From: a bacterium
GTDB taxonomy: Bacteria > Margulisbacteria > Marinamargulisbacteria > SXXA01 > JAHFDB01
Reading direction: 5' to 3'
Assembly (NCBI GenBank): GCA_023249195.1
Contig: JAHFDB010000003.1
Coordinates: 7,561-71,560, forward strand
DNA: 64,000 nt
A program made the position numbers and the translations under genes. Below are positions 16,385-23,324 of the stretch, in pieces (position 1 is the first letter of the stretch; every line of letters begins with the position of its first letter). The notes under the pieces were generated by a model. That model saw nothing but the letters and a program-made list of their open reading frames with translations, was not told the origin of the DNA and did no database searches.

Positions 16385-17047
16385 ATGAAGTATTTAGTTC
16401 TTGTTTTAGTAACCATGATAGGATTTTCTGCACCTGCGATCGCAGCAATGAGTTCGTCAGATATTGAACAAGCCTACAACCGGTCTTATGCCAGTGAACG
16501 CGCTGGAAAATTTTCAGAGGCTGCCGAGGCACTTTCCCCGGTTGCAAAAGAATATCCGAACGGATACACCCTCAACTATAGGCTTGGCTATTTGGCCTCT
16601 GCCAGCAAAGATGCTGCCAATGCCCTTCTTTTCTATGACAAAGCAATTTTAGCAGCACCCAGTGCCGTAGATCCTCGCTTGGCTAAAATGTCCCTTCTAT
16701 TGGTGCAAGGAAAATATGCCCTTGCCGAACAAGTAGGTTATCAAATTTTGAACGTAGACCTAGGCAATTATCTAGGCAACTTGAAGTTAACCTATGCACT
16801 TAGAATGCAGCAAAAAAATGACTTGGCTGAAAAAGTCGATATCAGAATGCTTGCGTTATATCCTACCGACGCCTCTTTCTTGGCTGAGTACGGTATTTTA
16901 AAATATTATGCTGGCCCACTTGAAAGATCGGCCCAAATTTTTCAGGATTTATTGACCCTTTACCCTGGAAATGCCCTTGCAAAAGATTATTTGGCTTTAA
17001 TCAAGAAAATCTCAGCATCTAAAGAACAAAAAGTTAGTGCTCACTAG
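16385..17047 (+). CDS. Secreted TPR-repeat protein
   Basis: It has a signal peptide and TPR-like helical repeats, and overlaps the downstream decarboxylase start by 11 bp. Confidence 0.5.
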   Translation: MKYLVLVLVTMIGFSAPAIAAMSSSDIEQAYNRSYASERAGKFSEAAEALSPVAKEYPNGYTLNYRLGYLASASKDAANALLFYDKAILAAPSAVDPRLAKMSLLLVQGKYALAEQVGYQILNVDLGNYLGNLKLTYALRMQQKNDLAEKVDIRMLALYPTDASFLAEYGILKYYAGPLERSAQIFQDLLTLYPGNALAKDYLALIKKISASKEQKVSAH

Positions 17048-19709
17048 GGAAAATCTCCCTGTATTTGACCTCCAGTATTTTCGTCTTGAGGTTTGGAAAA
17101 ATTTAAAATCTGAAAGTCTCTCCCCTACACCGGATAGTGTTCATATTCGGTGTTTGCTGGATGAGGTTCTCAAAGCCGAGTACTTCTGGGCCTATCCTGG
17201 CCCAGAAGTCATGACCAAGCTTCATTGCTATTTAGAGGCCTCGTCTCTTTCCCTCTTTAAACAACTTATCTGCAATGTGGTATCGATGCTAGAAGACAAT
17301 CACTATCGCACTCACTATTTTTTACCTTATACGTCCACTTTGGACCTTTTAGACAAACCCTTACTCTGTGAGGGGCTTCATGTCACACACACTTCTTTTT
17401 CTAAAAAAAAGCCTTATTTTGAAGTCTTGGTGGTGCATCCATTTGTGGCCGCTTACGAACTTCTCTATCGCAAAGGCTTATATGATTTAAAAACCGATCG
17501 CGACGAGTTTCTTTATGATTTGGTATTTGTCGAAAGCCCACAAGCCGCCATTGCTGCCATTTTAGCGAATCCCAGTATTCAATCTGTGGTCTGTGTGTCT
17601 GGGTTTGAATATAATCCCTCGGAACTTCTGCCACTGAGCACAGACTATTTGACCTTTCTAGAGGCTTCTGATCCTGCCTTACGATTCCCTTATTCAGACC
17701 CTTTTTTAGGCCTCAGTCGGTCTATTCGGCGCCTTCGTCCAGAAATTGATCAGTTTTTTATTTCAGAGATACTCCCTAATCACCTTGATTTAAACTATCA
17801 GACTCACTTTAACCGCATTTTATTTCATATTAACCCTTTCCCCGACCTGCACTTTTACATTCTCAATGGCATTCGAGACCGATTTTCAACCCCCTTTTTT
17901 CATGCGATTCAAGCCTACAGCAAACGTCCAAAGGGGGTTTTTCATGCTCTGCCTATTTCCAGAGGAAAGTCGATGCAAGATTCTCCTTGGATCCAAGATT
18001 TTACAGATTTTTATGGTCCCACCGTATTTTTAGCGGAAACCTCGTCTACACGGGGAGGGTTAGATTCCTTACTTGACCCTAAGGGAGCCATTAAACAATC
18101 GCATGACGAAGCCGCCAGAACCTTTGGAGCCGATCATACCTACTTTGTCACCAACGGTACCTCTACCGCCAATAAAATTGTTTTGCAAGCGACACTTTCT
18201 CCGAAAGATTGGGTCTTGGTGGCCTCTGATTGCCATAAATCGATTTCCTATGCGGTGATGCTCAGTGGGGCACTCCCTGTTTTTTTAGAAACCTATTCCT
18301 TAGACCATTTTGACCTCTACGGAGCCGTCCCCCTTCGCAGAATTAAGTCTATTTTACTAGAGCTCAAAGCCCACGGTCAGCTGCACAAGGTCAAGCAAGT
18401 GTCTCTCACCAATTCTACTTTTGATGGCATTCTGTACAACGTCGACATGTTTATGATGGAAATATTGGCGATAAAACCCGACATTATTTTTCATTGGGAT
18501 GAGGCGTGGTTTGCGTTTGGTTATTTCAACCCTCTTTACCACGGGCGCAGTGCCATGTCGGCAGTGCATACCCTCAGGGCTCGATTTCAGGATCCCCATT
18601 ACCACCAGTTTTATGCCACTTGGAAAGAGGCCTTTCTTGAAAAAGAGGCCTTAAACCCAGGGGCATGGCTTGAAGAAACCCTTTATCCCGATCCAAAAGA
18701 AGCTAAAATCAGGGTCTATGTTACCCAATCGACTCACAAAACATTGACGGCGTTTCGACAGGGCTCCATGATTCACATCTCCGACGATCTGTTTCATTCA
18801 GATAGTTTTTGGGATGCTTATCGTATTCACACCTCCACCTCGCCCAACTATCAAATTTTAGCTTCACTCGATGTTGGAAGGCGTCAAGTGGCCCTAGAAG
18901 GCTTTGAACGGGTTAAACATGCCCTTTATTTAGCGCATAAGCTTCGTTATCAGCTTCAAACCCTCGCCTCTTTGCAGCCTTATTTTAAACTTTTAAGCGA
19001 TACTGACATTGTCCCTCAGGCACACACATCGACCCCCTCTTTACTTACCAGTGCTTATGCCAAACATTTTTCTCAATGGAATAACCATGAGTTTGTTGTA
19101 GATCCTACCCGCATCACCCTGGATGTCAGGGGAACAGGAATGGATGGCACCAATTTTCGCGAGTTACTCATTAACCGCTACGATATTCAGGTCAATAAAA
19201 CATCACGCTATACCGTATTGTTTATTGTGAGCATTGGATCAACACAGCAAAGCATTGATTTTCTTATTCAAGTCTTATTGGATATTTCCCAGAGACTCGA
19301 TTCTGATCCTCCCCTTATGTCCACACTCTCAAAGGACGTTACGGTCTGTTTGCCTAAAACACGACACTTTCATCCCTTATTTAGAACCACTCAACTCAAA
19401 GAATGTGAAGTGGCTCAATTGCGAGAGCCCTTCTACGAGGCATTTGAAAGCGATTCTATCATGTATGCTCCCTTAGATAGCGATACACTTAAACGTGTCT
19501 TAAATGACGAAAAACTGGTCTCTGCGGCCTTTGTGACACCTTATCCGCCCGGGGTGCCCATTCTTGTCCCCGGACAAATTGTCTCGTATGAAGTTATTTT
19601 GTATTTACAAAGCCTCAAAAACAAGGAAATTCATGGCTATCGGCCCTCAGAAGGGCTTAAAATTTTTAGGGCCGACTATTTAATAAACAAGGCTTCTGCC
19701 TCATGTTAA
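17037..19709 (+). CDS. PLP-dependent Orn/Lys/Arg decarboxylase family (fold type I, OKR_DC_1), unusually long at 890 aa
   Basis: GADHTYFVTNGTSTANKIV, the PLP-lysine motif QSTHKTL, and the major plus C-terminal domains are present. About 150 aa of N-terminal extension is seen relative to LdcI/AdiA. Confidence 0.7.
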   Translation: MLTRENLPVFDLQYFRLEVWKNLKSESLSPTPDSVHIRCLLDEVLKAEYFWAYPGPEVMTKLHCYLEASSLSLFKQLICNVVSMLEDNHYRTHYFLPYTSTLDLLDKPLLCEGLHVTHTSFSKKKPYFEVLVVHPFVAAYELLYRKGLYDLKTDRDEFLYDLVFVESPQAAIAAILANPSIQSVVCVSGFEYNPSELLPLSTDYLTFLEASDPALRFPYSDPFLGLSRSIRRLRPEIDQFFISEILPNHLDLNYQTHFNRILFHINPFPDLHFYILNGIRDRFSTPFFHAIQAYSKRPKGVFHALPISRGKSMQDSPWIQDFTDFYGPTVFLAETSSTRGGLDSLLDPKGAIKQSHDEAARTFGADHTYFVTNGTSTANKIVLQATLSPKDWVLVASDCHKSISYAVMLSGALPVFLETYSLDHFDLYGAVPLRRIKSILLELKAHGQLHKVKQVSLTNSTFDGILYNVDMFMMEILAIKPDIIFHWDEAWFAFGYFNPLYHGRSAMSAVHTLRARFQDPHYHQFYATWKEAFLEKEALNPGAWLEETLYPDPKEAKIRVYVTQSTHKTLTAFRQGSMIHISDDLFHSDSFWDAYRIHTSTSPNYQILASLDVGRRQVALEGFERVKHALYLAHKLRYQLQTLASLQPYFKLLSDTDIVPQAHTSTPSLLTSAYAKHFSQWNNHEFVVDPTRITLDVRGTGMDGTNFRELLINRYDIQVNKTSRYTVLFIVSIGSTQQSIDFLIQVLLDISQRLDSDPPLMSTLSKDVTVCLPKTRHFHPLFRTTQLKECEVAQLREPFYEAFESDSIMYAPLDSDTLKRVLNDEKLVSAAFVTPYPPGVPILVPGQIVSYEVILYLQSLKNKEIHGYRPSEGLKIFRADYLINKASASC

Positions 19710-22160: not shown

Positions 22161-22196
22161 GAGTGTGTAAAATAGAAACAAAAAAGGATTTTTCCG

Positions 22197-23324
22197 ATGC
22201 CCCTTATACAAACAACCGTTCCCTTACTCGACTTAACCGCCCAATACGAACCCATCAAAGACGATGTCCTCGCTGTTATAAAAGAGGTTTTTGACTCTAA
22301 AGTCTTTATTTTAGGGCCTAAAGTTACACAGTTTGAAGCCCAGGCCGCTGCCTATTGTCATGTCAACCATGCTATTGGAGTCTCTTCAGGAACCGATGCC
22401 ATTTTAATGGCCCTCATGGCTATGGGTATTGGACAAGGCGATGAAGTTATTACAGCACCCTTCACTTTTTTTGCAACTGCCGGATGTATTTCTCGCGTAG
22501 GCGCCACCCCTGTCTTTGTAGATATTGATCCTCACACCTTTAATATTGATCCTCACTTAATCGAAGCCTCTATTACGCCTCGCACCAAGGCCATTATGCC
22601 TGTCCATCTTTTTGGTCACATGGCCGATATGGACGCTGTGATGGCCATCGCAAAAAAACATGGGCTTTATGTCATTGAAGATGCCTCACAAGCGATTGGA
22701 TCGCACTATACCAACTCTAAAGGTGAGGTTAAATGGGCAGGTTCTGTCGGTGATGTCGGGTGTTTTTCGTTCTTCCCCTCTAAAAACCTCGGGGGTATTG
22801 GGGATGGCGGCATGATTACGACCCAGAATTCTCATTTGGCAGACACCCTTATAAAACTCAGGAATCACGGGGCACAAGAGCGTTATTTCCATGAAATGGT
22901 CGGCGGAAATTTTAGACTCGATGCCATTCAAGCTGCCGTGTTAAGTGTCAAGCTGCCCACGTTAGAGGAGCAACATCGGCTTCGACAAAAAAATGGGGCT
23001 TACTACAACGAGCATCTCCACTCACTTGTCACGATTCCCTTTGTTAAACCCGGATTTCGCATGATTTACAATCAATATACCCTTCGCACCCCAAAGAGGG
23101 ATGCCCTTCATGCATGGCTGGATCAACGTCAAATCGGTAACGCTATCTACTATCCCCTTCCACTGCATCTGCAAAAATGTTTTGCCCATTTAGGCTATGA
23201 GGCTGGCGACTTTCCTGAATCAGAAAAAGCCGCTTTGGAAGTGCTTTCTATTCCCATTTATTCAGAATTAAATACAGAACAAAAACAGGCGGTTGTTGAG
23301 GCCATAAAAGCGTTTTTTAACTAA
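22197..23324 (+). CDS. DegT/DnrJ/EryC1/StrS-family PLP aminotransferase (ArnB-like)
   Basis: Family-typical segments include the N-terminal region, LMALMAMGIGQGDEVI, PVHLFGHMADMD and the GG..G.G.GGMITT region. Confidence 0.75.
   Translation: MPLIQTTVPLLDLTAQYEPIKDDVLAVIKEVFDSKVFILGPKVTQFEAQAAAYCHVNHAIGVSSGTDAILMALMAMGIGQGDEVITAPFTFFATAGCISRVGATPVFVDIDPHTFNIDPHLIEASITPRTKAIMPVHLFGHMADMDAVMAIAKKHGLYVIEDASQAIGSHYTNSKGEVKWAGSVGDVGCFSFFPSKNLGGIGDGGMITTQNSHLADTLIKLRNHGAQERYFHEMVGGNFRLDAIQAAVLSVKLPTLEEQHRLRQKNGAYYNEHLHSLVTIPFVKPGFRMIYNQYTLRTPKRDALHAWLDQRQIGNAIYYPLPLHLQKCFAHLGYEAGDFPESEKAALEVLSIPIYSELNTEQKQAVVEAIKAFFN

Follow-up and report, generated by a model that had tools for sequence, protein, structure and literature searches.

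The long-form "Lys/Orn/Arg" decarboxylases received their first assigned function only in 2026, when Rv2531c from Mycobacterium tuberculosis was reported to be a Mg2+-dependent L-glutamate decarboxylase with a puzzlingly high K0.5, which forms gamma-aminobutyrate (GABA) in vivo and in vitro, is inactive on Lys, Orn and Arg, and is the source of most GABA in this organism (PMC13506015). Cryo-EM of Rv2531c (PDB 9N0N/9N0O/9N0P) revealed an extra N-terminal four-helix domain (PMC12329521). Here we analyzed a stretch of 64,000 nucleotides from a Marinamargulisbacteria genome (assembly GCA_023249195.1, contig JAHFDB010000003.1, positions 7,561 to 71,560; the whole stretch is called "the window" below), which encodes a member of this family. 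The window enzyme shares with Rv2531c the four-domain architecture, the pyridoxal phosphate (PLP) lysine and all proposed substrate-binding residues; however, Rv2531c has been described as a stand-alone enzyme of the GABA shunt, while in the window its counterpart shows translational coupling to two partners, an ATP-grasp ligase and a C45-family N-terminal nucleophile (Ntn) hydrolase. Upstream of this trio lie three further genes, encoding a urea transporter/M23 metallopeptidase fusion (UT-M23), a putative outer-membrane beta-barrel and a secreted tetratricopeptide repeat (TPR) protein, to which we refer as the envelope module. All the enzymes belong to known superfamilies, but neither the pathway and its product nor the channel-peptidase module has been characterized. 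We propose, with a probability of roughly 45%, that glutamate-derived GABA is ligated into an amide, which is processed by the C45 enzyme and moved by the envelope module.

The conserved core of the cluster is the widespread trio of the long-form decarboxylase, the ATP-grasp ligase and the C45 Ntn-hydrolase. An alignment-based search with the ATP-grasp family in one genome per GTDB species identified homologues in at least 585 species genomes, while an exact-peptide scan of genome contigs with the single ATP-grasp sequence gave no match. Linkage was counted in the best 80 species-level loci, using as denominators the loci with enough flanking sequence. The decarboxylase gene was found upstream of the ATP-grasp gene in 61 of 64 loci and the C45 gene downstream of it in 65 of 68, both flank it in 53/57, and the median gaps between the matched segments are ~100 nt. 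These loci are distributed among Proteobacteria, Bacteroidota, Planctomycetota, Chloroflexota, Actinomycetota and Margulisbacteria, and a Marinamargulisbacteria metagenome-assembled genome (MAG; L010) also bears the cluster. An earlier note on this DNA had regarded the three genes as tightly linked parts of an unrecognized cluster and had suggested a synteny search with the decarboxylase/ATP-grasp pair; both the linkage and the pairing are borne out by the 80 loci. The trio is an ancient and very widespread three-enzyme module of an uncharacterized pathway.

The decarboxylase (17037-19709, plus strand; 890 aa, GTG start) is predicted to be a fold-type-I PLP-dependent L-glutamate alpha-decarboxylase. 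Pfam assigned its catalytic domain to OKR_DC_1 (E-value 5e-79), and phmmer identified Rv2531c (9n0o, 9n0n) as the best solved relative (E-value 1e-181, residues 27-881 aligned with 47-900 of Rv2531c, 39% identity over 825 columns), while the matches to LdcI and AdiA (~1e-57) are confined to the first half of the catalytic domain. The window enzyme shares the fold-type-I catalytic core and the C-terminal domain with LdcI/CadA, LdcC, AdiA and SpeF, but these decameric proteins act specifically on basic substrates and are shorter by ~150 aa; no antiporter gene is located next to the window decarboxylase. The Pfam major domain starts at residue 285, compared to 126-136 in LdcI/AdiA, and the N-terminal extension of ~150 aa, already noticed in the earlier note, is real: it corresponds to the extra N-terminal four-helix domain of Rv2531c (PMC12329521), which therefore accounts for the greater length, and it precedes the receiver-like, catalytic and C-terminal domains. 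The glutamate selectivity of Rv2531c has been attributed to K406/H405, T606, R576, R718 and N731, based on modeling and partial mutagenesis (PMC13506015). In an alignment of Rv2531c, the window enzyme and 66 trio-linked orthologues (n=68), the equivalents of H405, K406, K570 (the PLP lysine), R576, T606, S607 and N731 are invariant in all 68 sequences, and position 718 is occupied by R in 16 and by K in 52 of them (R in the window enzyme). The corresponding residues of the window enzyme are H400, K401, K568 (the PLP lysine), R574, T601, R708 and N720. The median identity to the trio-linked enzymes is 44% for Rv2531c and 41% for the window enzyme; being equally similar to them, Rv2531c falls inside the same family. 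The scores obtained with the NCBIfam models of LdcC, CadA, AdiA and SpeF (223.6, 202.9, 176.3 and 130.2 bits) are all below the respective cut-offs (968, 1056, 1167 and 1310). Based on the homology to Rv2531c and on the conserved specificity residues, the window decarboxylase is probably a glutamate enzyme rather than a Lys/Orn/Arg enzyme, and we infer the formation of GABA as the best assignment for it.

The ATP-grasp ligase (19703-21181, plus strand; 492 aa) is a member of an uncharacterized family, for which neither a match in Pfam nor a sequence match in the PDB (phmmer) could be identified. The AlphaFold2 (AF2) model of this protein has a mean pLDDT of 92.6, and a Foldseek search with it reported 609 PDB matches at E-value <=0.001 and recovered the three-domain ATP-grasp fold, with biotin carboxylase, PurK and L-amino-acid ligase as the top matches (TM-score 0.5-0.6, identity 10-14%). 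Among 36 family members, the loop G184-D-S-G-K-T-T190 and the motif E311-x-N313-x-R315 are invariant. The family comprises 173 representatives at 50% clustering (E-value <=1e-30) and more than 5,000 clusters at 90% (E-value <=0.001). By analogy with other enzymes of this fold, we infer that it forms an amide via an acyl-phosphate. A biotin carboxylase was also considered and rejected: the NCBIfam model PRK06524, which is a "biotin carboxylase" by name only, gave 514 bits, below its cut-off of 684, the identity to the solved enzymes is at the 10-14% level given above, and the partners are a decarboxylase and a C45 enzyme, not a biotin carboxyl carrier protein (BCCP) or a carboxyltransferase. 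The window contains a gene for a BCCP-like protein (Biotin_lipoyl domain; 26413-26889, plus strand), but the gene immediately after it is recJ (26890-28560) and does not encode a biotin carboxylase, and no synteny of the BCCP-like gene with the ATP-grasp family was seen in other loci.

The C45-family protein (21183-22160, plus strand; 325 aa) is a putative Ntn (Cys) autoproteolytic amidase or acyltransferase, confidently matched by PF03417 (E-value 4.6e-36; 125 bits, cut-off 23.2) and by the NCBIfam model C45_proenzyme (162 bits, cut-off 85). G92-C93 corresponds to the autoprocessing site Gly102-Cys103 of the fungal isopenicillin-N acyltransferase (IAT) (PMC1285064), and it is kept among the orthologues (Cys in 63/64, Gly in 54/64), hence the protein is predicted from its sequence to be cleaved at G92|C93, which would generate the N-terminal Cys nucleophile. 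The characterized family members split or exchange amides that are omega-linked: in the case of IAT this is the amide of the delta-(L-alpha-aminoadipoyl) side chain in isopenicillin N, and the substrates of Drosophila Tan are N-beta-alanyl-dopamine and carcinine (PMC1285064); the similarity of the window protein to both is at the family level only. The sequence search of the PDB was without match also for this protein, so neither it nor the ATP-grasp ligase has close solved relatives. The translation, read by eye, reveals no signal peptide, for which reason we take the C45 enzyme as cytoplasmic.

According to the earlier note, these three genes formed a four-gene operon together with a gene for a DegT/DnrJ/EryC1-type sugar aminotransferase (22197-23324, plus strand; 375 aa). 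All four open reading frames (ORFs) were confirmed at their coordinates, on the plus strand, in the ORF list and in the sequence, and the family calls were upheld (for DegT PF01041, E-value 2.3e-121, although below every NCBIfam equivalog cut-off; for the other three, the matches given above). Reading of the junctions likewise confirmed that the ATG of the ATP-grasp gene (19703) overlaps the stop codon of the decarboxylase gene (19707-19709; ATGTTAA), and that the stop codon of the ATP-grasp gene (21179-21181) is separated by one base from the ATG of the C45 gene (21183). The linkage of the trio stands, but the operon as described included DegT and omitted the three upstream genes, of which the last, encoding the TPR protein, has its stop codon at 17045-17047 and overlaps the GTG of the decarboxylase gene (17037) by 11 nt. 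The ATG of the DegT gene (22197) is preceded by a 36-nt spacer with an AAGGA motif, in which a terminator scan found no terminator-like site. A DegT homologue was found in 0/80 trio loci and in 0/82 loci with UT-M23, as well as in none of six individually inspected contigs (see below), and in the two nearest relatives that were examined (58% and 55% identity) its place is taken by a methyltransferase gene. As it is never syntenic in related loci, we place DegT outside the conserved unit; it is an unrelated neighbor, which may be co-transcribed in this genome only. Its proposed role as a tailoring enzyme of the pathway falls with this result, and once it is removed nothing backs the amino-sugar product that had also been suggested. 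The real unit is the six-gene cluster 13297-22160.

The first gene of the cluster (13297-15366, plus strand) encodes UT-M23, a protein of 689 aa, in which a urea-transporter-fold channel (residues ~11-298) is followed by an M23 metallopeptidase (~340-480) and by an unassigned beta-rich C-terminal domain (~500-689; the last ~190 residues have no Pfam match). Pfam identified the UT domain (PF03253, E-value 1.5e-55; 189 bits, cut-off 25) and Peptidase_M23 (5.4e-14), and the AF2 model (pLDDT 89.7) matches in Foldseek the Desulfovibrio vulgaris urea transporter (3k3f; TM-score 0.80-0.84, 331/332 columns, i.e. the complete fold) as well as LytM/lysostaphin-type M23 domains. The protein scores below the cut-off of the Yut equivalog TIGR03441 (104.7 bits, cut-off 274.6), therefore urea is not implied as the permeant, and no urease or urea-carboxylase genes were found near UT-M23. 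Of the Zn ligands and catalytic His residues of the metallopeptidase, H352, D361, H469 and H471 do not vary among 35 sequences, and H436 is conserved in at least 90% of them; the first His and the Asp are spaced by 8 residues, compared to the canonical 3. The urea-transporter fold comprises ten helices, with both termini on one side of the membrane. A hydropathy scan suggested approximately 10 transmembrane (TM) helices in UT-M23, and the N-terminus and the linker after TM10 are both rich in Arg and Lys, as counted by eye on the translation. Since the M23 domain is located after the final helix of such a fold and the flanks are Arg/Lys-rich, it is predicted to face the cytoplasm, which would be unusual among known M23 enzymes. 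The complete channel fold and the intact metal ligands are thus shared with the D. vulgaris transporter and Yut, and with the LytM/lysostaphin-type enzymes, respectively, but these are separate proteins, while here both domains reside in one polypeptide together with the third, beta domain.

The second gene (15457-16335, plus strand) encodes a protein of 292 aa, which has no match in Pfam or NCBIfam even at E-value <=5. It exhibits a Sec-type signal peptide (MFTQKNKGKGLFLGVAFTLLMMSTVQA) and an aromatic C-terminal end (...VSAHF) as is usual in outer-membrane barrels, both recognized by eye, which suggest a putative outer-membrane beta-barrel. Its orthologues hold the same position in six related loci (L003, L005, L007, L009, L010 and L011). 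The third gene (16385-17047, plus strand) encodes a TPR protein of 220 aa (TPR_16 and TPR_14 matches), with a signal peptide (MKYLVLVLVTMIGFSAPAIA) and without a lipobox Cys. Searches revealed at least 1,159 homologues of the UT-M23 fusion, and UT-M23, the barrel and the TPR protein adjoin the trio in 17 loci, 11 of them from genomes and 6 from metagenomes. Six contigs were inspected singly (an unclassified MAG, Psychromonas aquimarina, a Logan assembly, a betaproteobacterium, another MAG and Shewanella surugensis) and exhibit a common block of UT-M23, a ~290-aa protein, the TPR protein, the long decarboxylase, the ATP-grasp ligase and the C45 enzyme; the ~290-aa protein is missing from the Psychromonas block, and in S. 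surugensis the cluster is rearranged, with the genes for the barrel-like protein and the TPR protein at its opposite end. The three upstream genes, which the earlier note had mentioned as a possible means of export or anchoring, are thereby tied to the trio by synteny, and they are a real accessory module in the clade of the window. In the literature that was searched, we found no description of the trio or of the UT-M23 system, although a mention in the 2009 amidoligase survey of Iyer and Aravind is possible. Two variants of the block were also seen. In three Bacteroidota loci (L047, L058, L068), a VOC-like protein, the decarboxylase and the ATP-grasp ligase occur without C45, with UT-M23 and TPR genes on the opposite strand immediately upstream, where M23 might replace C45. 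In L171, which carries the closest relative of the window ATP-grasp ligase (58%), the first gene (99-1610) encodes a urea-transporter protein of 503 aa for which no M23 match was recorded; its peptidase domain may be truncated or divergent.

Clustering of all ORFs in the 80 trio loci revealed a second set of recurrent neighbors: a nitrilase-superfamily amidase (CN-hydrolase; 33 loci), a GabT-like class-III transaminase (21 loci), a VOC-like small protein (15 loci), an aldehyde dehydrogenase (ALDH) similar to succinate-semialdehyde dehydrogenase (SSADH; 10 loci) and TRAP-TAXI or APC permeases (15 loci). GabT and/or the aldehyde dehydrogenase were found beside the trio in 25 of the other loci examined. 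The GabT-like transaminase scores 501 bits with TIGR00700, the model of GABA transaminase, just below the cut-off of 506.65, and 251 bits as a putrescine aminotransferase. Neighbors of the GabT and SSADH type point to GABA independently of the decarboxylase. CN-hydrolase, GabT and ALDH occur in 0/13 loci with the envelope set, compared to the 33, 21 and 10 trio loci that bear them, and the permeases likewise never co-occur with it. This mutual exclusion suggests that the two sets are alternative ways of handling the same metabolite, either by the channel or by hydrolysis and transamination.

The envelope module in turn has a second enzymatic partner. In Persephonella, a Melioribacteraceae MAG and SAR324, the genes for UT-M23, a ~300-aa protein (to which, in the Persephonella-type cluster, the window barrel protein gives a weak match of 50 bits) and the TPR protein, which is kept beside UT-M23 in both cluster types, lie directly downstream of a different enzyme set, composed of a PqqD-like protein (78 aa), an ATP-grasp protein (~347 aa) and a fold-III decarboxylase (~450 aa), without C45. 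The fold-III decarboxylase is closest to FslC (236 bits) and LysA. An example is provided by Persephonella sp. IF05-L8 (L089:7340-13621), and the set was also found in L090, L091 and ~40 metagenome loci among L092-L156. Of the 79 metagenome loci, 24 contain the full alternative set, many more contain it cut off by contig ends, and 6 have the trio of the window type; the PqqD-type set is the commoner partner of the UT-M23 fusion. The envelope module accompanies "decarboxylase + ATP-grasp ligase" whichever protein families supply them, and it stands beside decarboxylases of either of two unrelated folds and ATP-grasp enzymes of either of two distant families, which strongly indicates that what the decarboxylase and the ligase produce is acted upon by the envelope proteins. 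We also considered a RiPP-like PqqD/ATP-grasp system: across 24 PqqD-type loci no conserved small ORF or precursor peptide was found beyond near-identical contigs, and the window has no PqqD, so this assignment was rejected for the window. As an independent observation, uvrB upstream of the Persephonella cluster (L089:3713-7261) contains an intein with a LAGLIDADG endonuclease domain.

Taken at face value, these assignments would give the following pathway. The long-form PLP decarboxylase would convert L-glutamate to GABA, and the ATP-grasp ligase would, at the expense of ATP, couple a carboxylate to an amine, with GABA or its glutamyl precursor as one of the two partners, to yield a GABA-containing pseudo-dipeptide or conjugate; these two steps may also proceed in the reverse order. 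The C45 enzyme, self-cleaved at Gly92|Cys93, would then hydrolyze or transfer an omega-aminoacyl or omega-amide bond, in a manner reminiscent of IAT and Tan. An inner-membrane UT-fold pore with the fused M23 and beta domains facing the cytoplasm, the secreted TPR protein and the outer-membrane barrel could move the small polar amide, or a fragment cleaved from it, across the envelope, inwards or outwards. Analogous combinations are known. The metabolism of beta-alanyl and GABA-yl amides in animals employs a decarboxylase, an ATP-grasp ligase and a C45 hydrolase in the same logical order as the trio, and carnosine/homocarnosine synthase is an ATP-grasp enzyme; however, the resemblance of the window ligase to carnosine synthase is one of enzyme class and not of sequence-level orthology, and in insects such amides are made by the NRPS-like Ebony instead of an ATP-grasp enzyme. 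We regard the parallel as a lead and not as evidence of membership. MfnA and MfnD of methanofuran biosynthesis are a decarboxylase and ATP-grasp/ligase pair. In that system, as in rhizoferrin biosynthesis by FslA and FslC, a PLP decarboxylase and an ATP-dependent amide ligase build an amine-acid conjugate, as proposed here, but the families differ from those in the window (MfnA is a group-II decarboxylase, FslC belongs to fold III and FslA is an NRPS-independent siderophore (NIS) synthetase), and neither C45 nor an envelope module is present.

Several points weigh against the synthesis of a GABA amide. The data establish the gene linkage, the folds and the intact catalytic motifs, while each chemical step is deduced from the characterized homologue or from the chemistry of the families. 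The K0.5 of Rv2531c for free glutamate is ~509 mM (PMC13506015), so that free glutamate may not be the preferred substrate of this decarboxylase family; diaminopimelate (DAP), Gln and gamma-glutamyl conjugates are not reported among the substrates tested with Rv2531c (PMC13506015), and the papers on this enzyme mention no ATP-grasp or C45 neighbors. The window cluster lacks GabT and SSADH and does not have the composition of a GABA-shunt operon. The cytoplasmic position of the M23 domain is drawn only from the general ten-helix topology of the fold and from positive-inside counting of Lys and Arg by eye. Finally, FslC and LysA, to which the alternative decarboxylase is closest, act on diamino substrates, and the two module types may make different amines.

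The very poor K0.5 for free glutamate would be readily accommodated if ligation came first, i.e. if the ATP-grasp enzyme made gamma-glutamyl-X (or attached Glu or another amino-dicarboxylate through its side chain), which would be decarboxylated to 4-aminobutanoyl-X and then trimmed or transferred by C45. Such an order parallels rhizoferrin biosynthesis, in which N-citrylornithine is decarboxylated by FslC after ligation by FslA, and both FslC and LysA, the nearest relatives of the decarboxylase in the alternative module, take distally substituted substrates; the position of the decarboxylase gene ahead of the ligase gene says nothing about the order of reactions. We nevertheless consider it unlikely, because the invariant R576 has been modeled as forming a salt bridge to the free gamma-carboxylate (PMC13506015), GABA derived from labeled free glutamate is lost in a knockout of M. 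tuberculosis, and no FslA-type synthetase is present. The second set of neighbors invites a catabolic interpretation, according to which the trio and the CN-hydrolase would turn an imported nitrogenous compound (glutamyl, amide or ureido) into GABA, to be passed by GabT and SSADH to the tricarboxylic acid (TCA) cycle; in the clade of the window the barrel, the TPR protein and the UT channel would then serve as the uptake path and M23 and C45 as the hydrolases. The frequencies of the amidase, GabT-like transaminase, aldehyde dehydrogenase and uptake-type permeases given above agree with this scheme, and urea-transporter channels are bidirectional pores. However, an ATP-consuming ligase is hard to fit into a simple degradation, GabT, SSADH and CN-hydrolase are all absent from the window cluster, and the trio is kept where no catabolic partner adjoins, which makes a catabolic module improbable in our opinion.

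The earlier note had instead proposed a Lys/Orn/Arg decarboxylase making a polyamine or agmatine, which would be conjugated by the ATP-grasp ligase and tailored by C45 and DegT. The Pfam name of the catalytic domain (Orn/Lys/Arg decarboxylase) agrees with it, and the CN-hydrolase, class-III transaminase and aldehyde dehydrogenase found beside the trio superficially resemble the route from agmatine/putrescine to GABA. This model is largely refuted and we give it hardly any credence: the Rv2531c subfamily uses L-glutamate and its glutamate-selecting residues are kept in the window enzyme, the Arg residues with which Rv2531c replaces LdcI positions are invariant here (PMC13506015), the scores with the LdcC, CadA, AdiA and SpeF models (130-224 bits) are far from the cut-offs (968-1310), the neighboring transaminase scores twice as high as GabT than as a putrescine aminotransferase, and DegT is never syntenic. 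Remodeling of the envelope or peptidoglycan, with a periplasmic M23 endopeptidase and with cytoplasmic enzymes whose amine or amide product would modify the cell wall or the outer membrane, would explain the intact LytM-type catalytic residues and the adjoining secreted TPR protein and putative barrel. We find it very unlikely, since the position of the M23 domain, after helix ten of a complete UT fold and between Arg/Lys-rich flanks, predicts a cytoplasmic location, and most genomes with the trio are without the envelope module. A bolder extension of the GABA-amide pathway is that the cluster represents one of two interchangeable versions of an unrecognized trans-envelope system, in which a cytoplasmic pair of decarboxylase and ligase, drawn from one or the other of two unrelated family sets, makes a small amide containing GABA or an amine, a UT-fold pore with a cytoplasmic M23 domain cleaves and releases the amide, and the TPR protein and the outer-membrane barrel would complete the path; we regard this version as doubtful. 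If true, it would be the first urea-transporter-family channel dedicated to a specialized metabolite, and the newly defined "cloaked" glutamate decarboxylases would mostly feed a ligase pathway and not the GABA shunt.

In several hundred species from many phyla, the long-form decarboxylase shares an operon with the uncharacterized ATP-grasp and C45 enzymes. The physiological role of this decarboxylase family is therefore probably to supply, or to act on, the substrate of the ligase, which points to a very common small amide metabolite behind the trio. The module swap provides a comparative-genomics handle on ~1,000 UT-M23 fusions that are annotated as "urea transporter" or "peptidoglycan endopeptidase". 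The question is directly testable in culturable carriers, such as Psychromonas aquimarina, Shewanella surugensis, Acinetobacter piscicola and Persephonella.

With respect to regulation, promoter and terminator scans gave no useful information, as the counts exceeded those expected from shuffled sequences only modestly, and a search for riboswitches and leader RNAs in the window and seven related loci, with both versions of the cluster included, was without result. In three betaproteobacterial loci (L012:738-2998, L014:3030-5293 and L015:2026-4265), the cluster is preceded, in divergent orientation, by genes for a histidine kinase and an OmpR/KdpE-like response regulator, and in Aquitalea (L085:5278-8666) a gene for a ~900-aa kinase (possibly KdpD-like, by size only) and the same response regulator precede the ATP-grasp gene; these neighbors may hint at osmotic or K+ regulation.

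The surrounding window is an ordinary chromosome, with sucC and genes for a polyprenyl synthase and an M32 carboxypeptidase, lepB, queC, recJ and spoT. Among named sequences, SucC is most similar to those of Candidatus Margulisiibacteriota (82%) and Marinamargulisbacteria (75%). Divergent from the cluster, on the minus strand, are two orphans reminiscent of effector-like proteins, one of 943 aa (9157-11988) with a weak match to a glycosyltransferase DXD region (E-value 0.0011) and one of 394 aa (12001-13185) with a weak ankyrin match (5e-4). They were considered as members of the cluster and rejected, as none of about 170 related loci contains a homologue of either. In the unclassified MAG GCA_023249285.1 (L007), a complete 16S rRNA gene (17393-18914, minus strand) is located 6 kb from the cluster and could serve for the taxonomic placement of this carrier. 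Downstream of DegT, the window contains a tRNA gene (24444-24515, plus strand), flanked on one side by lepB (23779-24408, minus strand) and on the other by a transposase-like gene of the Rpn/PD-(D/E)XK type (24677-25597); before the latter, the tRNA gene is followed by the strongest terminator-like hairpin of the region (24532-24561, plus strand), which has a 13-bp stem.

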